A stretch of 64,000 bases of DNA, taken from positions 701,031-765,030 of the forward strand of contig JADJVC010000002.1 of assembly GCA_016710685.1 (NCBI GenBank), read 5' to 3'. Below the pieces are notes generated by a model. That model searched no databases. It worked only from the letters and a program-made list of their open reading frames with translations, and was not told where the DNA came from. Positions within the stretch are counted from its first letter, which is position 1. Each line of letters starts with the position of its first letter. This stretch comes from Flavobacteriales bacterium. GTDB taxonomy: Bacteria; Bacteroidota; Bacteroidia; Flavobacteriales_F; PHOS-HE28. Shown one piece after another: positions 10,446-42,197 of the stretch. Both the position numbers and the translations under genes were made by a program.

Positions 10446-11340
10446 AACGCTCGTTCTCCTTCTTGCGATCTTGGGCGGCGGCATGGCCGTGGCACAAGAG
10501 TTCAATTGCAAGGTTTCCGTATTGGCACCCCAGGCACAAAGCACGCCAAAGCGCGTGTTCGAGAGCATGGAAACGAGCATTTCGCAGATGATGAACACGC
10601 GGCGCTGGACCGCGTTGAACTTCAGCCCCCAAGAGCGAATCGACTGCAACATGCTGCTCACCATCAACGAGCAAAGTGGCACCACCACCTACAAGGGCAC
10701 GTTGCAAGTGATCTATTCCCGGCCCGTTTACGGCTCCGATTACATGAGCCCGGTAGTGGACATCCTGGACAACAACGTACAGTTCACCTTCTTGGAGAAC
10801 ACCCAGATCGAGTTTGCGCCGGAGCGATTCACCAATAACCTTTCATCTGTCATCGCCTTCTACGCTTATTACATCCTGGGCGTGGACGCGGACACGTATT
10901 CGCCCAACGGTGGCAGCGATTTCTATGCCCAGGCACAGACCGTGGTGACGAATGCACAGAACGCCAGCGAGTCGGGCTGGAAAGCCTTTGAGGATCAGAA
11001 GAACCGCTATTGGCTCATCGACAACCAGCAGCAGGCGGCGTTCCGTCCGCTGCGCGATTTTCTGTATGAATACCACCGCGACGGCTTCGACGCCATGGGA
11101 ACGGATGTTGCCGGCGGGCGCAAAGCATGCGCAGCGGCCATTGAGAAGTTAAAGGCTGTGCATCAGGCCAAGCCCAGCAGCTACAACCTCCAGGTGGTGT
11201 TCAACGCCAAGTACAATGAGCTGGTGCAGCTCTTCAAAAGCAGTGACCCGCAGGAACGTGCCAAGGTCTACAACACGTTGCAGATCATCGATCCCGGACA
11301 CATCAACCAGTATCTGGAGATGATGCGTGGCGGGCGGTAA
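10438..11340 (+). CDS. DUF4835-family secreted protein, the conserved partner downstream of coaBC
   Basis: The signal-peptide start MRKTLVLLLAILGGGMAVAQ overlaps the coaBC stop. Position and size are typical for the family. The track ORF starts at 10402. Confidence 0.6.
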   Translation: MRKTLVLLLAILGGGMAVAQEFNCKVSVLAPQAQSTPKRVFESMETSISQMMNTRRWTALNFSPQERIDCNMLLTINEQSGTTTYKGTLQVIYSRPVYGSDYMSPVVDILDNNVQFTFLENTQIEFAPERFTNNLSSVIAFYAYYILGVDADTYSPNGGSDFYAQAQTVVTNAQNASESGWKAFEDQKNRYWLIDNQQQAAFRPLRDFLYEYHRDGFDAMGTDVAGGRKACAAAIEKLKAVHQAKPSSYNLQVVFNAKYNELVQLFKSSDPQERAKVYNTLQIIDPGHINQYLEMMRGGR

Positions 11341-25926: not shown

Positions 25927-26103
25927 GTTGTCAGTTGTCGGTTGTCAGGTGCTGCCGAGAGCTTTGTCATTCTGGAAGGAGGAACGACGAAGCAGTCTTT
26001 ACTTGAAAAATGACCAAGGGAGTTTGGCTAAAGATCGCTTCGTCGTTCCTCCTCGCGAACCGGAGATGGGCAGCCTGACAACTGACAACCAACAACTGAC
26101 AAC
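25927..26103. repeat. Nested inverted-repeat element. Outer arms are built from GTTGTCA heptamers. Inside is a perfect 16-bp stem with a 43-nt loop.
   Basis: Outer arms gttgtcagttgtcggttgtcaggtgctgcc (25927..25956) and ggcagcctgacaactgacaaccaacaactgacaac (26069..26103). Inner stem ggaggaacgacgaagc (25978..25993) pairs with gcttcgtcgttcctcc (26037..26052). Ends 12 nt before the kdsC-like start. Confidence 0.6.
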
Positions 26104-26114
26104 TAAACCCTGAA

Positions 26115-34253: not shown

Positions 34254-34691
34254 TCACAATATCCGCCGCAAGTAGTTCACCTGTCCCAAATGGTAGTTGA
34301 GGTGCCCGTGCAGATGCAGCAGAAAGTAGCCGGTAGTGGTTTCCTCCGGCAATACCCGGATCGGGAACGGCTGGGTCAGTCGACTTTTATCCAATGCCAC
34401 TAGGGTGTCATCCACGGCAGTAATGGTCTTTTTTAATTCCTCCAGAAGCTCCAGCTTAGGAATGCTCTTTGCGGCGAATTCACGCTCCCGATCCCGCGAA
34501 TAGGCACTGCCGCCGAGCACTGCTCCTATGAAGTGCCTCAGGTTGCCGCAGATGTGGAGAGCCAAATTGCCGGCGCTGTTTGTAACGCTGCCTGTGGTTC
34601 GCCAAATGTCCTCTTCCGCCTTGAAAGCATCGATCTCATTGCACAATTTGTGCAGGTCGCGGGCAAACAGACTACGGAGGTCAGTAAGCAT
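34254..34691 (-). CDS. DinB/DUF1572-like four-helix-bundle protein
   Basis: About 146 aa from MLTDLRSLFARDL. Spaced His residues (HICGNLRHF…HLHGHLNYHLGQ) typical of the DinB_2 metal-binding fold. The track ORF starts 41 codons earlier. Confidence 0.45.
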   Translation of the reverse strand: MLTDLRSLFARDLHKLCNEIDAFKAEEDIWRTTGSVTNSAGNLALHICGNLRHFIGAVLGGSAYSRDREREFAAKSIPKLELLEELKKTITAVDDTLVALDKSRLTQPFPIRVLPEETTTGYFLLHLHGHLNYHLGQVNYLRRIL

Positions 34692-34763
34692 GGGGGCGCT
34701 CTTTTCAACGCTGAAGGTAATCAAAAGCGGGAGCTTCGGGTCTGGGTCTGGTCCTGAAATGAA

Positions 34764-34801
34764 GAAAGCCCCAAAAGAGGGGCTTTCTTGCGGTCCGGAC
34801 G
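34764..34801. repeat. Terminator-like hairpin plus a 14-nt copy of the tRNA-Asp 3' end (att-like remnant A)
   Basis: aaagcccc-aaaaga-ggggcttt followed by tgcggtccggacgg, identical to the sequence at 38929..38942 (the tRNA-Asp acceptor end, complement strand). Confidence 0.5.
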
Positions 34802-34867
34802 GTCCTTCCCGCATCTACGCTTCACTTCGTGCGGGATAAACTTCTCGTCCCGTCGGGTTAAACGAAA

Positions 34868-34917
34868 AAAGCTCCCAAAAGAGGGAGCTTTTTGCGGTCG
34901 GACGGGACCTGAACCAT
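34868..34917. repeat. Terminator-like hairpin plus a 24-nt degenerate copy of the tRNA-Asp 3' end (att-like remnant B)
   Basis: aaaagctccc-aaaaga-gggagcttttt followed by tgcggtc-ggacgggacctgaacc. Compare the tRNA tgcggtccggacgggactcgaacc. Same orientation as the tRNA. Confidence 0.5.
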
Positions 34918-35920
34918 TCTTATCCCCCTTTGTCGAATTGTGGTTTGCCTACGCGCCAACGGTGGGATTCGCAGAAGGCTGAATAAAGACGAAACGGGGA
35001 AAGGAACGACAACGGACCGACAACCGACTATATTCCCCGTTATACCTAGCATCACACACGGCACGGATCGAACCTGCGGACCCCCCAGCCCGGGGGCCGG
35101 CTGGGGTGTCGTTGCGGGGGCGGACCGGTGGGGCGGCCCTGAACAACGGGGCGTTCCCCGCGTCCTGTCAACCAAAGTGAACGACTACCTGGAGTTGCAG
35201 GATGGTTCCAGTCTACAGCAGCCGTTCACGAAAACGGTTGCGGGGTCGACGGAACAAGGCAAGGCCGAGGTCATACGGCGGCCGGCGACAAATGCCTCGG
35301 GGGACGGCTCGGAACCCACCCGACGCGCTCGATAAGGCGATAACGGGACACACAAGGCAATCGTTTCGGGTCTACATCCGCTAAAGCGCGGCGCCGGGGC
35401 CGTGGGGGCCCGGGCGGGGCAGCGAGTTGGGGAGGGGGGACAAAATGCCCTCTAGTGAGGTTGGCCCTTGGCTATCGGAGGAATTAAACCACACACTATC
35501 GGTCTGCACATATTCTGCACTGTGCAACGGGGTGCCAATACAAACTGCAATCGAGCAGAATTTCAAGATCCAATGGATTCAAACGCTTGAGGATAGGCTA
35601 TAAACCGGAATCACCTAGTCAGCCGCTCAACCGCCTAGAGTGGAATTGCTCAACCGCCGTCTACGTTCATATCGTGAAGGAACTACTTAATAGAGGGTAC
35701 CTCTTTCTGCGGGAAGACGCCAGGATGCGGCATATCCGACTGTTCGCGGCTTCACAGTCGATTACCGTTTCCGGTCGAGACGGTACGGAATTATCCCCGG
35801 ACGAACGGCGATTCATGGTCGGCCTGGCAAGGCAAAGGCAAGACGACGTTACCAGGGGCAGAGGACATGAAAGCGTTTCAACGTTGGGTCCGATTACCTC
35901 GACCCTAGGCATGGGTTCGT

Positions 35921-36253
35921 TTGCGTCAGGTTCGCCAACAATGGCAACCCAAACGCAAATGGAACAGGTATTTTCTCACAGGTCCCGTCGCTGACCTACA
36001 GGGCTACATCGCCCAAACGATCCAACGTGAATTATCGGTCATCCTGAAGGCGGACCCCGCCCCGGATCCCGATGAACTGGTCACCCGCAAACAGGCCGCG
36101 CAATACTTGGGGTTGTCGTTGCCGACGTTGCATGAGTACACCATGCGCGGACTGGTGACGGCCTATCGGCTGGGGTCGAGGGTGCGCTATCGGAAAGGCG
36201 ATCTACTGAACTGCCTGCTGAAGGTTCAGACCGTGAAACACCGCGCCGCCTAA
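35921..36253 (+). CDS. Helix-turn-helix DNA-binding protein of the Bacteroidetes excisionase-like (HTH_17/Xis) type
   Basis: …IQRELSVILKADPAPDPDELVTRKQAAQYLGLSLPTLHEYTMRGLVTAYRLGSRVRYRKGDLLNCL matches the layout of CTn/mobile-element HTH proteins. Start uncertain (TTG in the track). Confidence 0.55.
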   Translation: MRQVRQQWQPKRKWNRYFLTGPVADLQGYIAQTIQRELSVILKADPAPDPDELVTRKQAAQYLGLSLPTLHEYTMRGLVTAYRLGSRVRYRKGDLLNCLLKVQTVKHRAA

Positions 36254-36615
36254 TGGATACCCCTGCATTCGCCAAACACCACCGCATCACCTTCGACCTC
36301 GACATTGATTCGGGCTGGTACATCCGCAGACCCGCCCCGATCCACTTCGCCAAGTTGCCGGGGAAACTGAAGGTCGAGCAGACACAGATCGAACGGTTCA
36401 GGAACCAAGGGGCTGAAACGATCATCACCGGACCAATGAGGGACAAACGGCGCACGTTCTATACTGGTCTGCGACAACTACCTGTCGAGGGTTGCTATGT
36501 GGGCAACGACTACGAACAGCGCAACGGGAAGGTCCTCGTTGGTCCTGTTCCAGTTCAGCGCGGATCATTCGAACTGACCTTTCTATTTCAACGGGTACTA
36601 CAAGGCGGCATCTGA
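36253..36615 (+). CDS. Hypothetical protein in the island
   Basis: 120 aa ORF with an ATG start directly after the HTH gene. No recognisable family. Confidence 0.3.
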   Translation: MDTPAFAKHHRITFDLDIDSGWYIRRPAPIHFAKLPGKLKVEQTQIERFRNQGAETIITGPMRDKRRTFYTGLRQLPVEGCYVGNDYEQRNGKVLVGPVPVQRGSFELTFLFQRVLQGGI

Positions 36616-36957
36616 AGACCGCAGCCGTTACCGTGTTATTCTTTCAGGACCAGCACCAGGGGCGCGTGACGGCCCCTGCCCTGTTATCGCCTTTACACAG
36701 GCATCACCCTGCAATGACGACTACGCGAGTTACTACACCTGCGAGGTAGGGCGCGCCTTTGGATCACCCTTACTGTCGTTCAGCGACCAGTGAATGAGGA
36801 TACCGGGGAACTGTTGGGACCGATGCACGATGCGCGGAATATGGCCGCATGACCTTACCATTACCCCAGCGGACGTACCACGATGCGGATCGTTCCACAA
36901 ACCGCGCACGGGGCAACTGGGACGAATACACGTTCACGCAATTCCTGGAGACTGTAG

Positions 36958-37827
36958 ATGAACTATGCAGAACCTTCGACCTCGACCCCCATACACGATA
37001 AAGGATGCCAGTACGGCCTACCCTTCGACCTGCTGCGGGATGAAGTGAAGTTCACCAAGGCCGCGCCTTTGCATCGCATGGGAATCTATACGTTGAACGA
37101 CCTACTGAACCCCGGCGCATGGAGACAACTACAGGCCCGCATCTTGGGCATATACGATGAACTGTTCATCCTCGAACCGTCGATCACCAAGGCCCCATTG
37201 ACACCTTCGCAGCGCACGTTCACCACCGTAGCCACCGCACCGGGTTACTGGCAAGGGCTGACCAAGGGACAACGATACAAGGCCCGCGCGCGCTATGCCG
37301 ACATCGTGGAACAGTTCGCCAGTAGCAACCTGAAGGGCGAACTACGCGAGGAGCTGGTCGGCAAGTTGAACGACCTGCTGAACGATGCCGAAACCACTGT
37401 CGAAAAGGGTGACCCTTTCACCAATATCCTAGGGCCTACGATCCAAGGTAAAGGGGGACCCTTTCACGGTTCAGTTAATGTGGGAACTGGTCACCCTACG
37501 GACACCGGGAACGATGGACCGGTCACCGCCCCTTGTACTGTTAAAGAAACAAGGGATAACAAAGGCGAAACAAAGGTGGAGGCCCGGTTTTGCCTGACCT
37601 GCGGTCATGACATTAGCGACCAGCGGAAAGGATCACGCTACTGTTCAGAGAGCCGGTACGGCAAGGCCGCTAAACAGTGCCGGAACGCAGGTAGCAACCC
37701 TCGGAACAATCGTCTGCGATCCTTGGAACTGATCGAGCGTGACCCGCTACTGTTCGACCATCGGCCATACATCGCCGCGTACGTCGCTGAATCACCACGC
37801 ATCACAATCTATAATAGAACAAAGTAG
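36958..37827 (+). CDS. Hypothetical protein with C-terminal C4 zinc ribbon
   Basis: 289 aa. C-terminal CLTCGHDISDQRKGSRYCSESRYGKAAKQCRN (CxxC…C…C with an R/K-rich spacer) resembles nucleic-acid-binding Zn ribbons of phage/plasmid proteins. Confidence 0.4.
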   Translation: MNYAEPSTSTPIHDKGCQYGLPFDLLRDEVKFTKAAPLHRMGIYTLNDLLNPGAWRQLQARILGIYDELFILEPSITKAPLTPSQRTFTTVATAPGYWQGLTKGQRYKARARYADIVEQFASSNLKGELREELVGKLNDLLNDAETTVEKGDPFTNILGPTIQGKGGPFHGSVNVGTGHPTDTGNDGPVTAPCTVKETRDNKGETKVEARFCLTCGHDISDQRKGSRYCSESRYGKAAKQCRNAGSNPRNNRLRSLELIERDPLLFDHRPYIAAYVAESPRITIYNRTK

Positions 37828-37830
37828 ACC

Positions 37831-38196
37831 ATGGCACGAGGAAGAAAAACAGGCGGTCGGCAATTTGGCACCCCGAACAAGGCCACGTCTACACTAACGG
37901 AACAGGTCGAACAGGCCACAGGCGGTGAACCTATCCCTGTGCTATTGGCACGCATCGGGGCGAAGGCCATGAAGGATCGGGATTACCAGACCGCTATCAA
38001 CGCATTGAGCAAGGCCGCTGCATACGTCTATCCACGGCTGCAATCAATTACCACCCCGGATACTCCCAACGTTCTACTCCCGCACTTAGTGGTGAATGCG
38101 GACGGGATGGCGAAGGTTCCCGAAAATTGGCCGGGACCAGTTATTCGGTTCGCAATGCGTAGCCCGCAGGATCCGCCGTCTACTATACTGGTTTGA
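37831..38196 (+). CDS. Hypothetical protein in the island
   Basis: 121 aa, begins 4 nt after the preceding gene. No recognisable family. Confidence 0.3.
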   Translation: MARGRKTGGRQFGTPNKATSTLTEQVEQATGGEPIPVLLARIGAKAMKDRDYQTAINALSKAAAYVYPRLQSITTPDTPNVLLPHLVVNADGMAKVPENWPGPVIRFAMRSPQDPPSTILV

Positions 38197-38930
38197 AGTA
38201 GGATTCACCCGGCCCGTATCCAGACCGTATTTATCGGCTATTAACGGGACGACTATGCGATCACGGCCCCGGAACATGCAGAGGTTTCCCGTCACATCGC
38301 GCACGTAAGGCGCACGCACACGCAAGGCCATGCAGACGGGGTTTCCGAAACCATCGCGCGCGTAACGGGACCCCGTGTTCACCTTGTTTCCGCCTTGTTA
38401 CACCGTGTTTTCACCGTTATAACAGCGGAATAACAGCGGTGAAAACAGACGAACTACTGCGCCAGAGAAAGGCCCTGTTTGCGTTTAGCGTCCTTTTTCC
38501 TTGCGCCAACGTTCAGGGGGATTGTAACCGCTGCAACGGTCCCGCAAAAGATCAACACAGGCGCGGCCAGTTCATTCTGGTTCCAGCTCGTGGAGGTCAT
38601 GAAATTCCCCGCGATCAACATCCCGAATGTCATGATTCAGCAGGTGCAACTAAGTCGTCTGGTTGAACGCCTTGATCTCATTCGGATGATACACATCTGG
38701 GGCCGGTGGAAGATCTTGCCATGCCCTCTAATGCACACATCAACAATGCTATGACTAGGAATCTCTGGGACGAAACTATGCATCGCTGTGTTCCCATCTT
38801 GTATTGTGTCAAATCTCAATAACAGGCGAGGAACAGGTGGCAATCGCCACAAACCGACAACCCAGTGACAACGCTACAACGAGGATCGCCGGAACCCTTT
38901 GCTATTGCTAGGATTGCGGCGAAACTTATG

Positions 38931-39004
38931 CGGTCCGGACGGGACTCGAACCCGCGACCTCCGCCGTGACAGGGCGGCATTCTAACCAGCTGAACTACCG
39001 AACC
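38931..39004 (-). tRNA. tRNA-Asp (anticodon GTC)
   Basis: Complement reads GGTTCGGTAGTTCAGCTGGTTAGAATGCCGCCCTGTCACGGCGGAGGTCGCGGGTTCGAGTCCCGTCCGGACCG. D-loop AGCTGGTTAGA. Anticodon loop CTGTCAC. T-loop GGTTCGAGTCC. 7-bp acceptor stem. Confidence 0.85.
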
Positions 39005-39150: not shown

Positions 39151-40080
39151 CTAATACAGTCGGCTCCGCTTAATCAAAAATTGCAACAGCACATTTTCAA
39201 ACCCCGCATTGATGTCCGCCTCCACCAGCTCAATGCGGTATTGGCCGCATTTCAACTTCAGCTCGTGCCAAAAGGCGTTCATGGCGGTTTTGTAGGCGGT
39301 GCGCACTTCGGCGGCGTGGGCCTTCACTTGTTCGCCGCTTTCCAGGTCCACGAAGGTGTACGGGCGGTCTTCCAAAGCGAGTTCCAGCTCGTGCTTGCGG
39401 TCCACCACGTGGAAGAGGATCACATCATGCTTGTTGTAGCGCAGGTGCTGCATGGCGTCGAAAAGCTCCTCACGGCGGGCGCTGTTGTCCATCATGTCGC
39501 TGAAGAGCACCACGAGCGAGCGGCGGTGGGTGCGGCGGGCAATGTCGTGCAGGGCTTCCACCGCGCTGGTGCCTTGCTCGCGTGCGGGTGCTTCAGTGCT
39601 TAGCAGGCCGTCCAACTGGGCCATGAGGTGGCGCAGGTGTACGGCATTGCTGCGGGCCTGTTCCGTAAGCAGCACGTGGTCGGAGAAAACAGTGAGCCCC
39701 ACGGCATCGCGCTGTTTGCGCAGCAGCGCTATCAACGCAGCGCTGGCGTAGGTGGCGAATTCAATTTTATTGAACTGCTTCGGTGCTTTTTCCGAAGTGG
39801 CCGGGTAGTACATGCTGCTGCTGGCATCGATCACCAATTGGCAACGCAGGTTCGTTTCTTCCTCGTAGCGTTTCACGAACAGCTTGTCGGTGCGCGCGAA
39901 GAGCTTCCAATCAATATGGCGCGTGCTTTCGCCGGGATTGTAAGCGCGGTGCTCCGCAAATTCCACACTGAAGCCATGGAACGGGCTTTTGTGCAGGCCG
40001 GCAAGAAATCCTTCCACCACTTGGCGGGCATGGAATTCCAACTGGCTAAGGGCTTGAATATGGTGTTGGTCTATCGGCAT
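39151..40080 (-). CDS. DUF58 (vWA-fold) protein, solitary
   Basis: 309 aa. GESTRHIDWKLFARTDKLFVKRYEEE and LVIDASSSM (MIDAS-like) are typical of DUF58 proteins that normally pair with MoxR ATPases. No MoxR gene nearby. Confidence 0.75.
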   Translation of the reverse strand: MPIDQHHIQALSQLEFHARQVVEGFLAGLHKSPFHGFSVEFAEHRAYNPGESTRHIDWKLFARTDKLFVKRYEEETNLRCQLVIDASSSMYYPATSEKAPKQFNKIEFATYASAALIALLRKQRDAVGLTVFSDHVLLTEQARSNAVHLRHLMAQLDGLLSTEAPAREQGTSAVEALHDIARRTHRRSLVVLFSDMMDNSARREELFDAMQHLRYNKHDVILFHVVDRKHELELALEDRPYTFVDLESGEQVKAHAAEVRTAYKTAMNAFWHELKLKCGQYRIELVEADINAGFENVLLQFLIKRSRLY

Positions 40081-40545: not shown

Positions 40546-42066
40546 ATGAGATTATTCATACTCCCACTGCTATTTGTTTTTTCCTTCACGGCCAATGCCC
40601 AGAATTGGGATTTGTTCCCATTGAATCAGAAGTCGGTTTACGTGGATAGCACGCAAGCCTTGCTTAGCACAGAGCAGCATGTGGTGGATTCCATTCGAAT
40701 TTCTGGTAATGTTCGCACCCTTTACTTTGACCAAGAGAGCAGCAGTGGTTCCGCTTACGGCTGTGAAGGAATAACCGGCGTTCCGCAACAGTGGGCTTTT
40801 AATTCCTATATCATCGATTCGTTGGTCGAAGTTTCGGATACTGTCTATTTTCAATCCACCTTCAGCACAACGCCCTTCTACTTTCTCCCTCAAGCATCAG
40901 TAGGCCAAAGCTGGTCGGTGATTTCATCGTCATTCGCTAATGGATATAACACCATTACGATAACATGCGCAATGGCTGGTGTACAAACTTTCTTGGGACT
41001 TACGGACAGCGTCAAGGTCTTTTCGCTACTGCCCAACGGCAACTCTCCGGGGCAACTACCCATAAGTAATCAGCATATTGTGCTGAGTAAGAATTATGGC
41101 CTGCTATCCTATGTGCCTTTTGATCAATTCATGTACCACCCGGCAAATTCGCAATTCCAGACAAGGGAACTGGTCGGGTTGCAAATTGGAGCCATTACGG
41201 CAGGATATCAGCGGCCTGTAGTTTCCGGCTATTTCCATTTAAGTCCAGGAGATTTGCGCAGTTGGGAATTGCATTTTATGCCAGCTTGGATCATCGAACC
41301 TGAAACGCTGGAATACATGAAGGACAGCATTACAGGGGCTGTAAGCACGAGCGACTCTGTGGTTTACACGTTTGACCGAACGTTCTATCATTATGACCAG
41401 TCGGTTTCGTTCCATGAAGGGTTAACCGAGCGCTATTGGTTGCCCGATTTAAAAGCGATGCTTGAAGCGCCGGGCTATGGGATTGCAATCGGGGCTGGCT
41501 TGCAGTATAATAGCTTTGGCATTTTCGAACCGGTTTATGGGCAACCTTTGGTTTGGACTGCGACTCCACATGAATGGATATACGAGCCATTACTCGAAGC
41601 AACGGTGGAGCATCTTTCCCTTTATTATTCGGGCTCATTTTTAGATACAGCACAATGCCAGTTTCTCGAAGCGTCTGATCTCGCTGCTCAGGTTGACGTG
41701 GATAATTGGGCCGGGGTAACGCGCAAATACTTGTACAATATCAACGAAACTACCCAAACGCTCCTCGGCTTTCGTATCAACGGAATAGTAAAGGGCTTGT
41801 TAACCGTCGGAGTCAATCAAGCCCGAATAATCAATCGCACAGCCCTCACGATCCAACCCAATCCCGCCAAGGAAAGCATCACCCTCCAAGGCATACCGCA
41901 CGGCACAACCGGCCTTTTCACCGTATACGACGGCCTTGGCCGGGAGGTCATGAGCGGTTCGCTTGCCACTTCCCCGGTTTCCGTTGGAGGACTCCAACCC
42001 GGCCTTTATGTGGTGCAGTTGCGGTTGCAGGACAGAACGACAACGGCGCGCTTCGTGAAGGAGTGA
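40546..42066 (+). CDS. Secreted hypothetical protein with T9SS C-terminal sorting domain
   Basis: Signal peptide MRLFILPLLFVFSFTANAQ. C-terminus …LQPGLYVVQLRLQDRTTTARFVKE is the por_Cterm pattern. Lower GC. Confidence 0.6.
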   Translation: MRLFILPLLFVFSFTANAQNWDLFPLNQKSVYVDSTQALLSTEQHVVDSIRISGNVRTLYFDQESSSGSAYGCEGITGVPQQWAFNSYIIDSLVEVSDTVYFQSTFSTTPFYFLPQASVGQSWSVISSSFANGYNTITITCAMAGVQTFLGLTDSVKVFSLLPNGNSPGQLPISNQHIVLSKNYGLLSYVPFDQFMYHPANSQFQTRELVGLQIGAITAGYQRPVVSGYFHLSPGDLRSWELHFMPAWIIEPETLEYMKDSITGAVSTSDSVVYTFDRTFYHYDQSVSFHEGLTERYWLPDLKAMLEAPGYGIAIGAGLQYNSFGIFEPVYGQPLVWTATPHEWIYEPLLEATVEHLSLYYSGSFLDTAQCQFLEASDLAAQVDVDNWAGVTRKYLYNINETTQTLLGFRINGIVKGLLTVGVNQARIINRTALTIQPNPAKESITLQGIPHGTTGLFTVYDGLGREVMSGSLATSPVSVGGLQPGLYVVQLRLQDRTTTARFVKE

Positions 42067-42067
42067 A

Positions 42068-42197
42068 GTCAGTTGTCCGTTGTTAGTTGTCAGTTCTCAG
42101 GCGTTGCAGCGCCAAGGCGCTCTGGTGGCAGCGTACATTGCATCGTCCCGTCGGGGCGGCATTTAGTGCAGCCTGACAACTAACAACTGAAAACTAA
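42068..42197. repeat. Long inverted repeat with GTTGTCA-heptamer arms between convergent genes. The right arm overlaps the uvrA stop.
   Basis: gtcagttgtccgttgttagttgtcagtt (42068..42095) …GC-rich core… cctgacaactaacaactgaaaactaac (42171..42197). Confidence 0.6.

Follow-up and report, generated by a model that had tools for sequence, protein, structure and literature searches.

What kind of element occupies the tRNA-Asp gene in this stretch of a Flavobacteriales genome, and why does it lack an integrase? In the 64,000-nt stretch analysed (hereafter the window), some 4 kb of DNA lies between the tRNA gene and two partial repeats of its 3′ end. A first-pass annotation read these repeats as attachment (att) cores left by site-specific integration, possibly in two successive events, and offered two explanations for the absence of a recombinase: a decayed island, or a satellite-like element served by an integrase supplied in trans. 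Comparison with related genomes indicates, with a probability of about 0.9, that positions 34893-38952 represent an eroded copy of an approximately 5.5-kb tyrosine-integrase element in the 3′ end of tRNA-Asp (T-loop to 3′ terminus), and that loss of the integrase was secondary.

Boundaries of the insertion

ARAGORN identifies tRNA-Asp(GTC) as the sole tRNA in the window, with its 3′ end pointing to lower coordinates. The top strand at this end reads TGCGGTCCGGACGGGACTCGAACC (38929-38952) and constitutes the proximal att core. Its last 14-24 nt recur twice about 4 kb away, as first annotated, with coordinates that are off by no more than 1-2 nt. The exact 14-mer TGCGGTCCGGACGG is present twice in the 64 kb (34789-34802 and 38929-38942), against an expectation of 0.13, and none of 100 shuffled sequences reaches two occurrences. 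The copy nearer the tRNA (copy 2) differs from 38929-38952 by a 1-nt deletion (one C), which is not present in intact sister copies of the element, and by a TC>CT swap. The outer copy (copy 1) shows a weak extension into the T-stem (GCGGG), and it therefore appears to be a more decayed copy of approximately 27 nt. Each copy adjoins a strong predicted hairpin, again as first described: hairpin 1, beside copy 1, folds at -20.0 kcal/mol (z -4.1) and hairpin 2, beside copy 2, at -19.1 kcal/mol (z -4.6), both with U-rich tails when read on the tRNA strand. A simple consensus terminator scanner flagged neither hairpin, because the T run was counted within the stem, and an Rfam E-value scan of the window returned the tRNA and one sub-threshold chance match, nothing else.

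Related genomes were fetched via the neighbouring DUF58 protein, and one close relative, L105, was found via the exact DinB protein of the window. In L105, the order is DinB, hairpin 1, copy 1, a 64-nt stub, hairpin 2, an intact tRNA-Asp and DUF58, within flanks 99.7 % (left) and 97.9 % (right) identical to those of the window. This unoccupied site differs from the occupied one by exactly the element plus one core copy; the two alleles diverge exactly at copy 2, the position of which in L105 is the genuine tRNA 3′ end. The island is therefore a discrete insertion ending exactly at copy 2 and the tRNA core. It also follows that hairpin 2 is the terminator of the tRNA in the unoccupied state, and that copy 1 and the stub predate the arrival of the island. 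In L001 (a Cryomorpha ignava metagenome-assembled genome, MAG), L002 and L006, DUF58, tRNA-Asp, a single hairpin, DinB, MORN and MnmA follow one another with nothing between.

The comparison across relatives that the first-pass annotation had proposed thus finds the segment absent, and tRNA-Asp uninterrupted, in L105, L001, L002 and L006. Together with intact sister elements at the same junctions, these empty sites confirm the repeats as att cores. Conserved synteny without repeats in close relatives had been named as the observation that would speak against integration; the opposite was found.

The intact element and its remnant in the window

A 289-aa open reading frame (ORF) within the island, first taken for a Zn-ribbon protein in its own right, proves to be a truncated protein, of which the C-terminal two-thirds are left, from a family whose members measure approximately 430 aa and have a predicted Rep_trans fold. 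A 99 %-identical full-length protein of 434 aa is encoded on L081. This strain, with about 95 % identity to the window, carries an intact 5.5-kb island at the same locus. From the DinB side, this island encodes an integrase of 429 aa (domains Arm-DNA-bind_5, Phage_int_SAM_5 and Phage_integrase), a Zn-ribbon protein of 193 aa, an HTH_17 (helix-turn-helix) protein of 98 aa, and proteins of 143, 434 and 121 aa; approximately 700-750 nt of non-coding DNA separate the last gene from the tRNA. The exact 121-aa protein is present in 68 collection blocks. An intact element is found at the same DinB/DUF58 site in L081, in L091 and in 10 of 10 places with this exact protein (L092-L101), so that more than 10 other assemblies hold the intact 5.5-kb element at exactly the window's site. 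The module of integrase, HTH, 143-aa and ~430-aa genes also occurs at tRNA-Glu (L082, L083) and tRNA-Leu (L085). An integrase of the element's own is encoded in all seven family contexts examined, as in the 10 exact-121-aa contexts, and its position in the family is the tRNA-distal end. The tRNA-Leu member (L085:5097-11160) carries a 416-aa cargo gene (Laminin_G_3, PKD, Por_Secre_tail) and a variant arm repeat, AAACCGACCCC.

The family exists as free circles of 6.5-6.9 kb. L087 and L090 are circular contigs of 6885 and 6566 nt, with terminal overlaps of 30 and 21 nt respectively, and neither contains a tRNA gene. Their attP runs through two CCGACAACC-type repeats, a hairpin (CGCCG..GCTATTGCT..CGGCG), the 22-24-nt tRNA 3′ core, about 110 nt, two or three CCGACAACC repeats at 12-nt spacing, and the integrase gene. 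Both junctions in the window align to this scheme, and the attP junction expected for the window element is ...GCGGCGAAACTTAT-GCGGTCCGGACGGGACNNGAACC-ATTCTTATCCCCC....

An intact element begins, at the tRNA-distal end, with a P arm bearing two or three copies of CCGACAACC, and continues with the integrase, Zn-ribbon and HTH/excisionase-like (Xis) genes and the genes for the 143-, 434- and 121-aa proteins. Roughly 700 nt of non-coding DNA follow, and the P′ arm closes the element with a pair of arm repeats and the hairpin that becomes the new tRNA terminator. In the window copy, deletions have removed the integrase, frameshifted Xis and the 143-aa gene, and taken from the Rep protein its N-terminal half and the putative catalytic tyrosine. 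The features of the locus are listed in Table 1.

Table 1. Features of the tRNA-Asp locus, in window coordinates
Feature	Position	Strand	Evidence or remark
DinB/DUF1572-family gene, left chromosomal flank	34254-34694	minus	Pfam; syntenic in all relatives
Hairpin 1, ancestral tRNA-Asp terminator of the clade	34763-34788	minus	~91 % identity to hairpin directly after tRNA-Asp in L001, L002
Copy 1 (34789-34802) and 64-nt stub	34789-34866	+	In empty site L105 and all occupied strains
Hairpin 2, tRNA-Asp terminator when site unoccupied	34867-34892	minus	Directly after intact tRNA in L105
Copy 2, distal att core of present element, displaced tRNA 3′ end	34893-34915	+	23 nt
P arm	34916-35047	+	attP alignment across family; compared with L081, L106; 22-nt match to L003
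Tyrosine-integrase pseudogene	35048-35391	+	blastn 78.5 % to L081 8005-8297; alignment; ORF translations against L081 integrase
Variable Zn-ribbon gene remnant	35392-35930	+	tblastn 56 % identity over 41 aa; homologous to L091/L093 allele
HTH_17 (Xis/excisionase-like) gene	35921-36253	+	Pfam HTH_17 E 4.8e-8; phrog_66 excisionase
143-aa gene remnant	36253-36690	+	tblastn matches over two frames; deletions from 36529 on
Pseudogene of 434-aa Rep_trans-fold protein	36714-37827	+	
121-aa ORF, intact	37831-38196	+	100 % identical to L081 protein; phrog_15261 E 3e-5
Non-coding region ('730-nt gap')	38197-38853	+	Nearly identical in intact L081
P′ arm	38854-38928	+	Aligns across family attP/attL including circles L087, L090; 84 % identical to L003 element end
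tRNA-Asp(GTC), integration target	38930-39004	minus	ARAGORN; Rfam tRNA 66.6 bits; same tRNA in empty sites L105, L001, L002, L006
DUF58 gene, right chromosomal flank	39151-40080	minus	Pfam DUF58 E 7e-39; syntenic in relatives

The description of the segment as integrase-less holds in that no intact recombinase ORF was found between the repeats, but not beyond this, since an integrase pseudogene is present. Its start codon is destroyed, approximately 830 nt of its body are gone, and a C-terminal remnant survives in two frames (...KAEVI...; ...AITGHTRQSFRVYIR). These remnants lie at the tRNA-distal end of the element. The 730-nt gap beside the tRNA, at the opposite end, had been thought the usual seat of an integrase, and remnants had been sought in 38200-38930; tblastn with the L003 and L081 integrases gave no match in this interval or in the rest of the 64 kb, and intact elements carry the gap too, as an ordinary non-coding stretch.

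The remaining genes of the window copy are damaged to differing degrees. The HTH gene has its native ATG at 35959 and loses its frame beyond codon 4 through 1-nt deletions at ~35970 and ~35988; the ORF is open solely from an upstream TTG at 35921, and from residue 6 its product is 96 % identical to the 98-aa HTH protein of L081. The 143-aa gene is frameshifted past approximately codon 92 (open ORF 36253-36615). In the Rep pseudogene, the N-terminal third contains about 20 small deletions, and a 176-nt deletion at 36994/36995, the junction of which joins CCCCCATAC to ACGATAAAGG, ends within the codon for Tyr158 (KIYDKG becomes PIHDKG). What remains is the 289-aa ORF (36958-37827), including a CxxC...C Zn-ribbon; an exact look-up of this ORF found no record. 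The 121-aa gene is the only intact gene of the window copy. Pfam and PHROG searches with the island ORFs gave the HTH_17, phrog_66 and phrog_15261 matches only. The Zn-ribbon gene between integrase and HTH is hypervariable in the family, with alleles of 193, 227 and 229 aa and many indels in both directions, and such differences occur between otherwise near-identical elements (window 35392-35930, L081:8414-9195, L091 reverse complement 1629-2410 and L093:3140-3865 were compared).

At the ends of the element, attL is nearly intact. The attR core has the 1-nt deletion, and one of its two P-arm repeats, at ~35003-35012, is broken by deletions, next to an intact CCGACAACC at 35017-35025. The P′ arm contains CCGACAACC at 38854-38862, GTGACAAC at 38866-38873 and a hairpin at 38886-38922 (-22.8 kcal/mol, z -2.9), which is supplied by the element and replaces the tRNA terminator. 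The conservation of position across the family points to an arm-type role for these repeats. In the non-coding region, the motif GTTTCC-N5-7-CATCGCGYRCG is found twice (38283-38308 and 38340-38365), followed in the window by a hairpin at 38410-38448 (10-bp stem, z -3.8); the motif recurs in L090 (~1515-1545) and L086 (~10680-10720). This region is probably an origin or regulatory region, with the motif and hairpin as a candidate origin or nick site. Judged by its sequence, the window copy as written would be unable to excise, replicate or integrate.

The predicted structure of the 434-aa protein has the fold of Rep_trans initiators, and the protein is thus a putative rolling-circle initiator or MobT-like relaxase. 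Tyr158 is invariant in 32 sequences of the family and is the putative catalytic tyrosine. In comparison with RepD/RepDE/RepSTK1 (PDB 4cwc, 4cij) and MobT of Tn916 and ICESt3, sequence identity is only 9-13 %, with no Pfam match, and the 434-aa protein has an extra helical domain and a C-terminal Zn-ribbon. The window copy differs further in that its N-terminal half and the tyrosine are missing.

The tRNA-Asp site appears to have a longer history of occupation. The stub is found in every strain of the window's species with a recovered left flank, and is absent from L001, L002, L006 and L003. Copy 1 and the stub may be what an earlier insertion left behind, or the product of an older rearrangement, in either case from before the present element. 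Since they and hairpin 2 are already in the empty site, the two distal copies go back to separate events, in line with the two successive events first suggested as possible. The element of L104 supports an insertion scar. The left flank of L104 is 99.8 % identical to that of the window and the same tRNA-Asp site holds a different element (L104:1-1400), with an integrase only 34 % identical to that of L081, three GGGTCAAC arm repeats and a distal core of only ~14 nt, the length of copy 1. L003, from another species, carries a 7-kb element at the same tRNA-Asp (L003:10395-17425), with a distal integrase 43 % identical to that of L081, an HTH_17 protein, a 713-aa primase/helicase-like protein, CCGACAACC arm repeats and a similar P′ hairpin. 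As L104 and L003 hold different elements, tRNA-Asp is an integration hotspot, used by at least three integrase lineages in the clade. The contigs of L102 and L103 end at copy 2. At tRNA-Glu, two partial tRNA copies likewise lie on the distal side in L082, at a spacing of 95 nt (L082:5400-5620; L083:1-170), and the outer one is preceded by an apparent decayed P′-arm hairpin, which suggests repeated insertion and decay at this site also.

A satellite-like element, maintained without an integrase and mobilized by one supplied in trans, would account for the survival of both att junctions and some arm-type repeats, and for the HTH/Xis-like ORF and three other ORFs that are still open. Integrases that are related and share the core and arm motif do circulate in the clade (L081, L003), and streptococcal cis-mobilizable elements (CIMEs) can be mobilized in cis or in trans (PMC5704250). 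This explanation is nevertheless very unlikely, given the integrase remnants inside the element and the integrases encoded by all other copies (7 of 7 family and 10 of 10 exact-121-aa contexts). No integrase of the element's type is present elsewhere in the 64 kb, and the eroded form has been seen once, with no second copy in exact look-ups and a metagenome scan. The distal core is one base short, a P-arm repeat is disrupted, and Xis and Rep have lost their reading frame and tyrosine respectively; this damage, with the integrase remnants, bears out the decayed island that had been proposed as the other explanation. Hallmarks of phage satellites or phage-inducible chromosomal islands (packaging redirection, primase-rep, helper interference) gave no Pfam or PHROG match, and a scan of viral contigs with the 434-aa protein found no relatives. 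It is less credible still that the repeats are not att sites at all, but terminator-associated motifs or the remains of a tandem tRNA-Asp array. The two hairpins share their loop sequence at a distance of 104 nt, and the 78-nt unit between them is close to the length of a tRNA. However, the 64 kb contain the 14-mer at no further position, ARAGORN and Rfam detect no second tRNA, and copy 2 is exactly where the empty and occupied alleles part. The 5′ part of the 78-nt unit is unlike tRNA-Asp, and a decayed tandem tRNA was rejected for this unit, its alignment to tRNA-Asp being no better than that of shuffled sequences (z 0.62, p 0.30). The analogous unit of L082 was also rejected as a tandem-tRNA pseudogene (p 0.11 against shuffles).

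Two further observations concern the surroundings of the island. An intergenic sequence of ~32-36 nt is present at 26071-26106 and 42071-42102 (91-94 % identity, one copy inverted) and matches L081:12621-12656, between tRNA-Asp and DUF58, where the window has a 14-nt gap (39145); this may be a small interspersed repeat. Two tandem 506-aa genes encoding Por_Secre_tail products are present in L093:8740-11986 and L097:7117-10363, and one in the window (40546-42066) and in L081.

Origin of the deletions

That deletions make up nearly all of the decay, and that they may be an artefact of assembly, was not foreseen in the first-pass annotation. When the window is compared with an L093-type island, the longest common subsequence covers 3985 of 4035 nt, with ~21 mismatches. 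The window copy contains approximately 130-160 deletions, 77 of them of 1 nt and the large ones of 176, 263 and 283 nt. Against L081, all but a handful of gaps fall in the window, while the flanks show 4.8 % mismatch with no gaps (over 6.7 kb), and 3.4 % mismatch with a balanced handful of gaps. Against the flanks of L102 and L105 (99.7-99.8 % identical), the sole gap is that of copy 2. All deletions lie within island columns that are absent from the empty allele (34899-38877), where affected blocks alternate with untouched ones on a scale of ~0.5 kb or its multiples; two of the untouched blocks, of 0.54 and 1.4 kb, match intact copies without a difference, and a G-rich 60 nt is left at 35087-35147. 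Twelve other assemblies were compared, and none has any of the deletions. No bias of the 1-nt deletions towards homopolymers or microhomology is seen (0.69, against a random expectation of 0.67), which argues against slippage and typical homopolymer read errors. A substitution-dominated pattern is expected of bacterial pseudogenes, and the pattern seen here does not look like ordinary pseudogene decay.

As near-identical lineages are polymorphic for the island (L105 is empty, L104 holds another element, and L102 and L103 have contig breaks), a technical origin is held to be somewhat likelier than real decay. The real chromosome would then carry an intact 5.5-kb element, and the assembly would have collapsed a population mixed for the island. 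Across the island columns, and nowhere else, island-free reads would vote for a gap, and bases would be stripped patchily during consensus building or polishing. The excess of deletions over substitutions, the flanks with substitutions but no excess of gaps, the confinement of the deletions to the island columns, the alternation of hit and untouched blocks, the lack of homopolymer or microhomology bias and the absence of the deletions from other assemblies all fit such an origin. The three large deletions and the G-rich 60 nt are not obviously products of a polisher, however; the mechanism could not be reproduced, and the surviving open ORFs could instead reflect selection. A tentative alternative is that the erosion is real, and that the window holds a genuine fossil, a CIME-like att-flanked remnant that underwent strongly deletion-biased decay after inactivation. 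Deletional bias is a known trait of bacterial pseudogenes, the deletions knock out every mobility function, and the older scar at the same site indicates that elements do decay here. Against this, about 7 indels per substitution is far from a substitution-dominated pattern, homopolymer bias is absent, and 1.4 and 0.54 kb of the island have no differences from intact copies. The 99.7-99.8 % identical flanks around an empty site or another element also leave little time for more than 130 events. Decayed elements and CIMEs are nonetheless common, and are typically found in tandem at tRNA 3′ ends (PMC5704250). That more than 130 small, randomly placed, element-confined deletions did arise in a very short evolutionary time, in an element with no other difference from active copies, appears improbable. 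If true, an unknown deletion-generating process, host-driven or linked to replication of the element, would inactivate a resident element, with selection possibly holding the HTH, Rep C-terminal and 121-aa ORFs open.

Several points weigh against reading 34893-38952 as an eroded copy of the intact element. The eroded copy comes from an assembly and may not be present in this form in a cell. No circular form or attP junction of the window's own element was found, a single metagenome scan with the start of the P arm yielding one more integrated, intact copy. The differences are not all deletions, as 35392-35930 carries genuine allelic divergence. The number of CCGACAACC repeats in the window by itself is only weakly significant (four against 0.66 expected, with two of the four outside the island). 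The Rep assignment is that of a predicted structure, with no Pfam hit at E<=1, no PHROG match and an empty profile search of PDB sequences. The absence of an integrase from this copy of the element is secondary under artefact and real decay alike.

Relation to known integrative elements

The Bacteroides mobilizable elements NBU1 and NBU2 integrate into tRNA 3′ ends via IntN1 and IntN2. The present family resembles them in its Bacteroidota tyrosine integrase with an Arm-DNA-binding N-terminal domain, its tRNA 3′-end target and the arm-type repeats that flank the core on both sides. In contrast to NBU1 and NBU2, it is half the size and has no recognized Mob relaxase/oriT module, with a Rep_trans-fold protein instead. 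In actinomycetes, the element pSAM2 carries int, xis and repSA at the 3′ end of tRNA-Pro. Rep_trans proteins are also encoded by streptococcal integrative mobilizable elements (IMEs) such as IMESag-rpsI and IME_Sga2069_rpmE (PMC5704250, Table 1). With these and pSAM2, the family shares a minimal int-xis-rep module, site-specific integration at the 3′ end of a conserved target gene and an excised circle. It differs in host phylum, in its size of 5.5-6.9 kb, in a Rep that matches Rep_trans by fold only and has a C-terminal Zn-ribbon, and in the absence of a canonical relaxase, coupling protein or Tra gene. Pfam searches of the element proteins gave no canonical Mob match; by analogy, a MobT-like role is conceivable for the Rep_trans-fold protein (PMC5704250). 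Anatomically, this is a classical tRNA-targeting tyrosine-integrase element, the int-xis-Rep core of which parallels these known systems.

Tandem accretion at tRNA 3′ ends has been described, as have CIMEs and other decayed integrative elements, among them the islands related to ICESt1 and ICESt3 of Streptococcus thermophilus (PMC5704250). Like a CIME, the window segment lies between an attL and an attR that stem from the target gene's 3′ end, and its integrase and mobility genes are lost. The three att-core copies in a row, with a newer element beside an older scar, resemble tandem accretion, a description that L082 also fits. Unlike the ICESt1/ICESt3 islands, the older partner here amounts to only ~90 nt (hairpin 2 and stub), the host is a Flavobacteriales-like member of the Bacteroidota, the attR is itself damaged, and the decay, which consists almost entirely of deletions, may have no biological cause.

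The finding in the window is thus mostly a clarification, namely that this is a damaged copy of an ordinary self-integrating element and reveals no new satellite biology. It carries a caution in that deletion-only 'pseudogenization' within a polymorphic island may be a consensus artefact, which could give rise to false decayed or integrase-less elements in MAGs. As a by-product, the comparison describes, from Flavobacteriales-like bacteria, a family of minimal 5.5-6.9-kb integrase-Xis-Rep elements that appears to be undescribed in Bacteroidota, with free circles, a clear attP architecture and a Rep that is invisible to sequence profiles. It also resolves a tRNA-Asp hotspot whose alleles in near-identical strains are empty, occupied, occupied by another element or scarred, which is useful for the study of integrase specificity.

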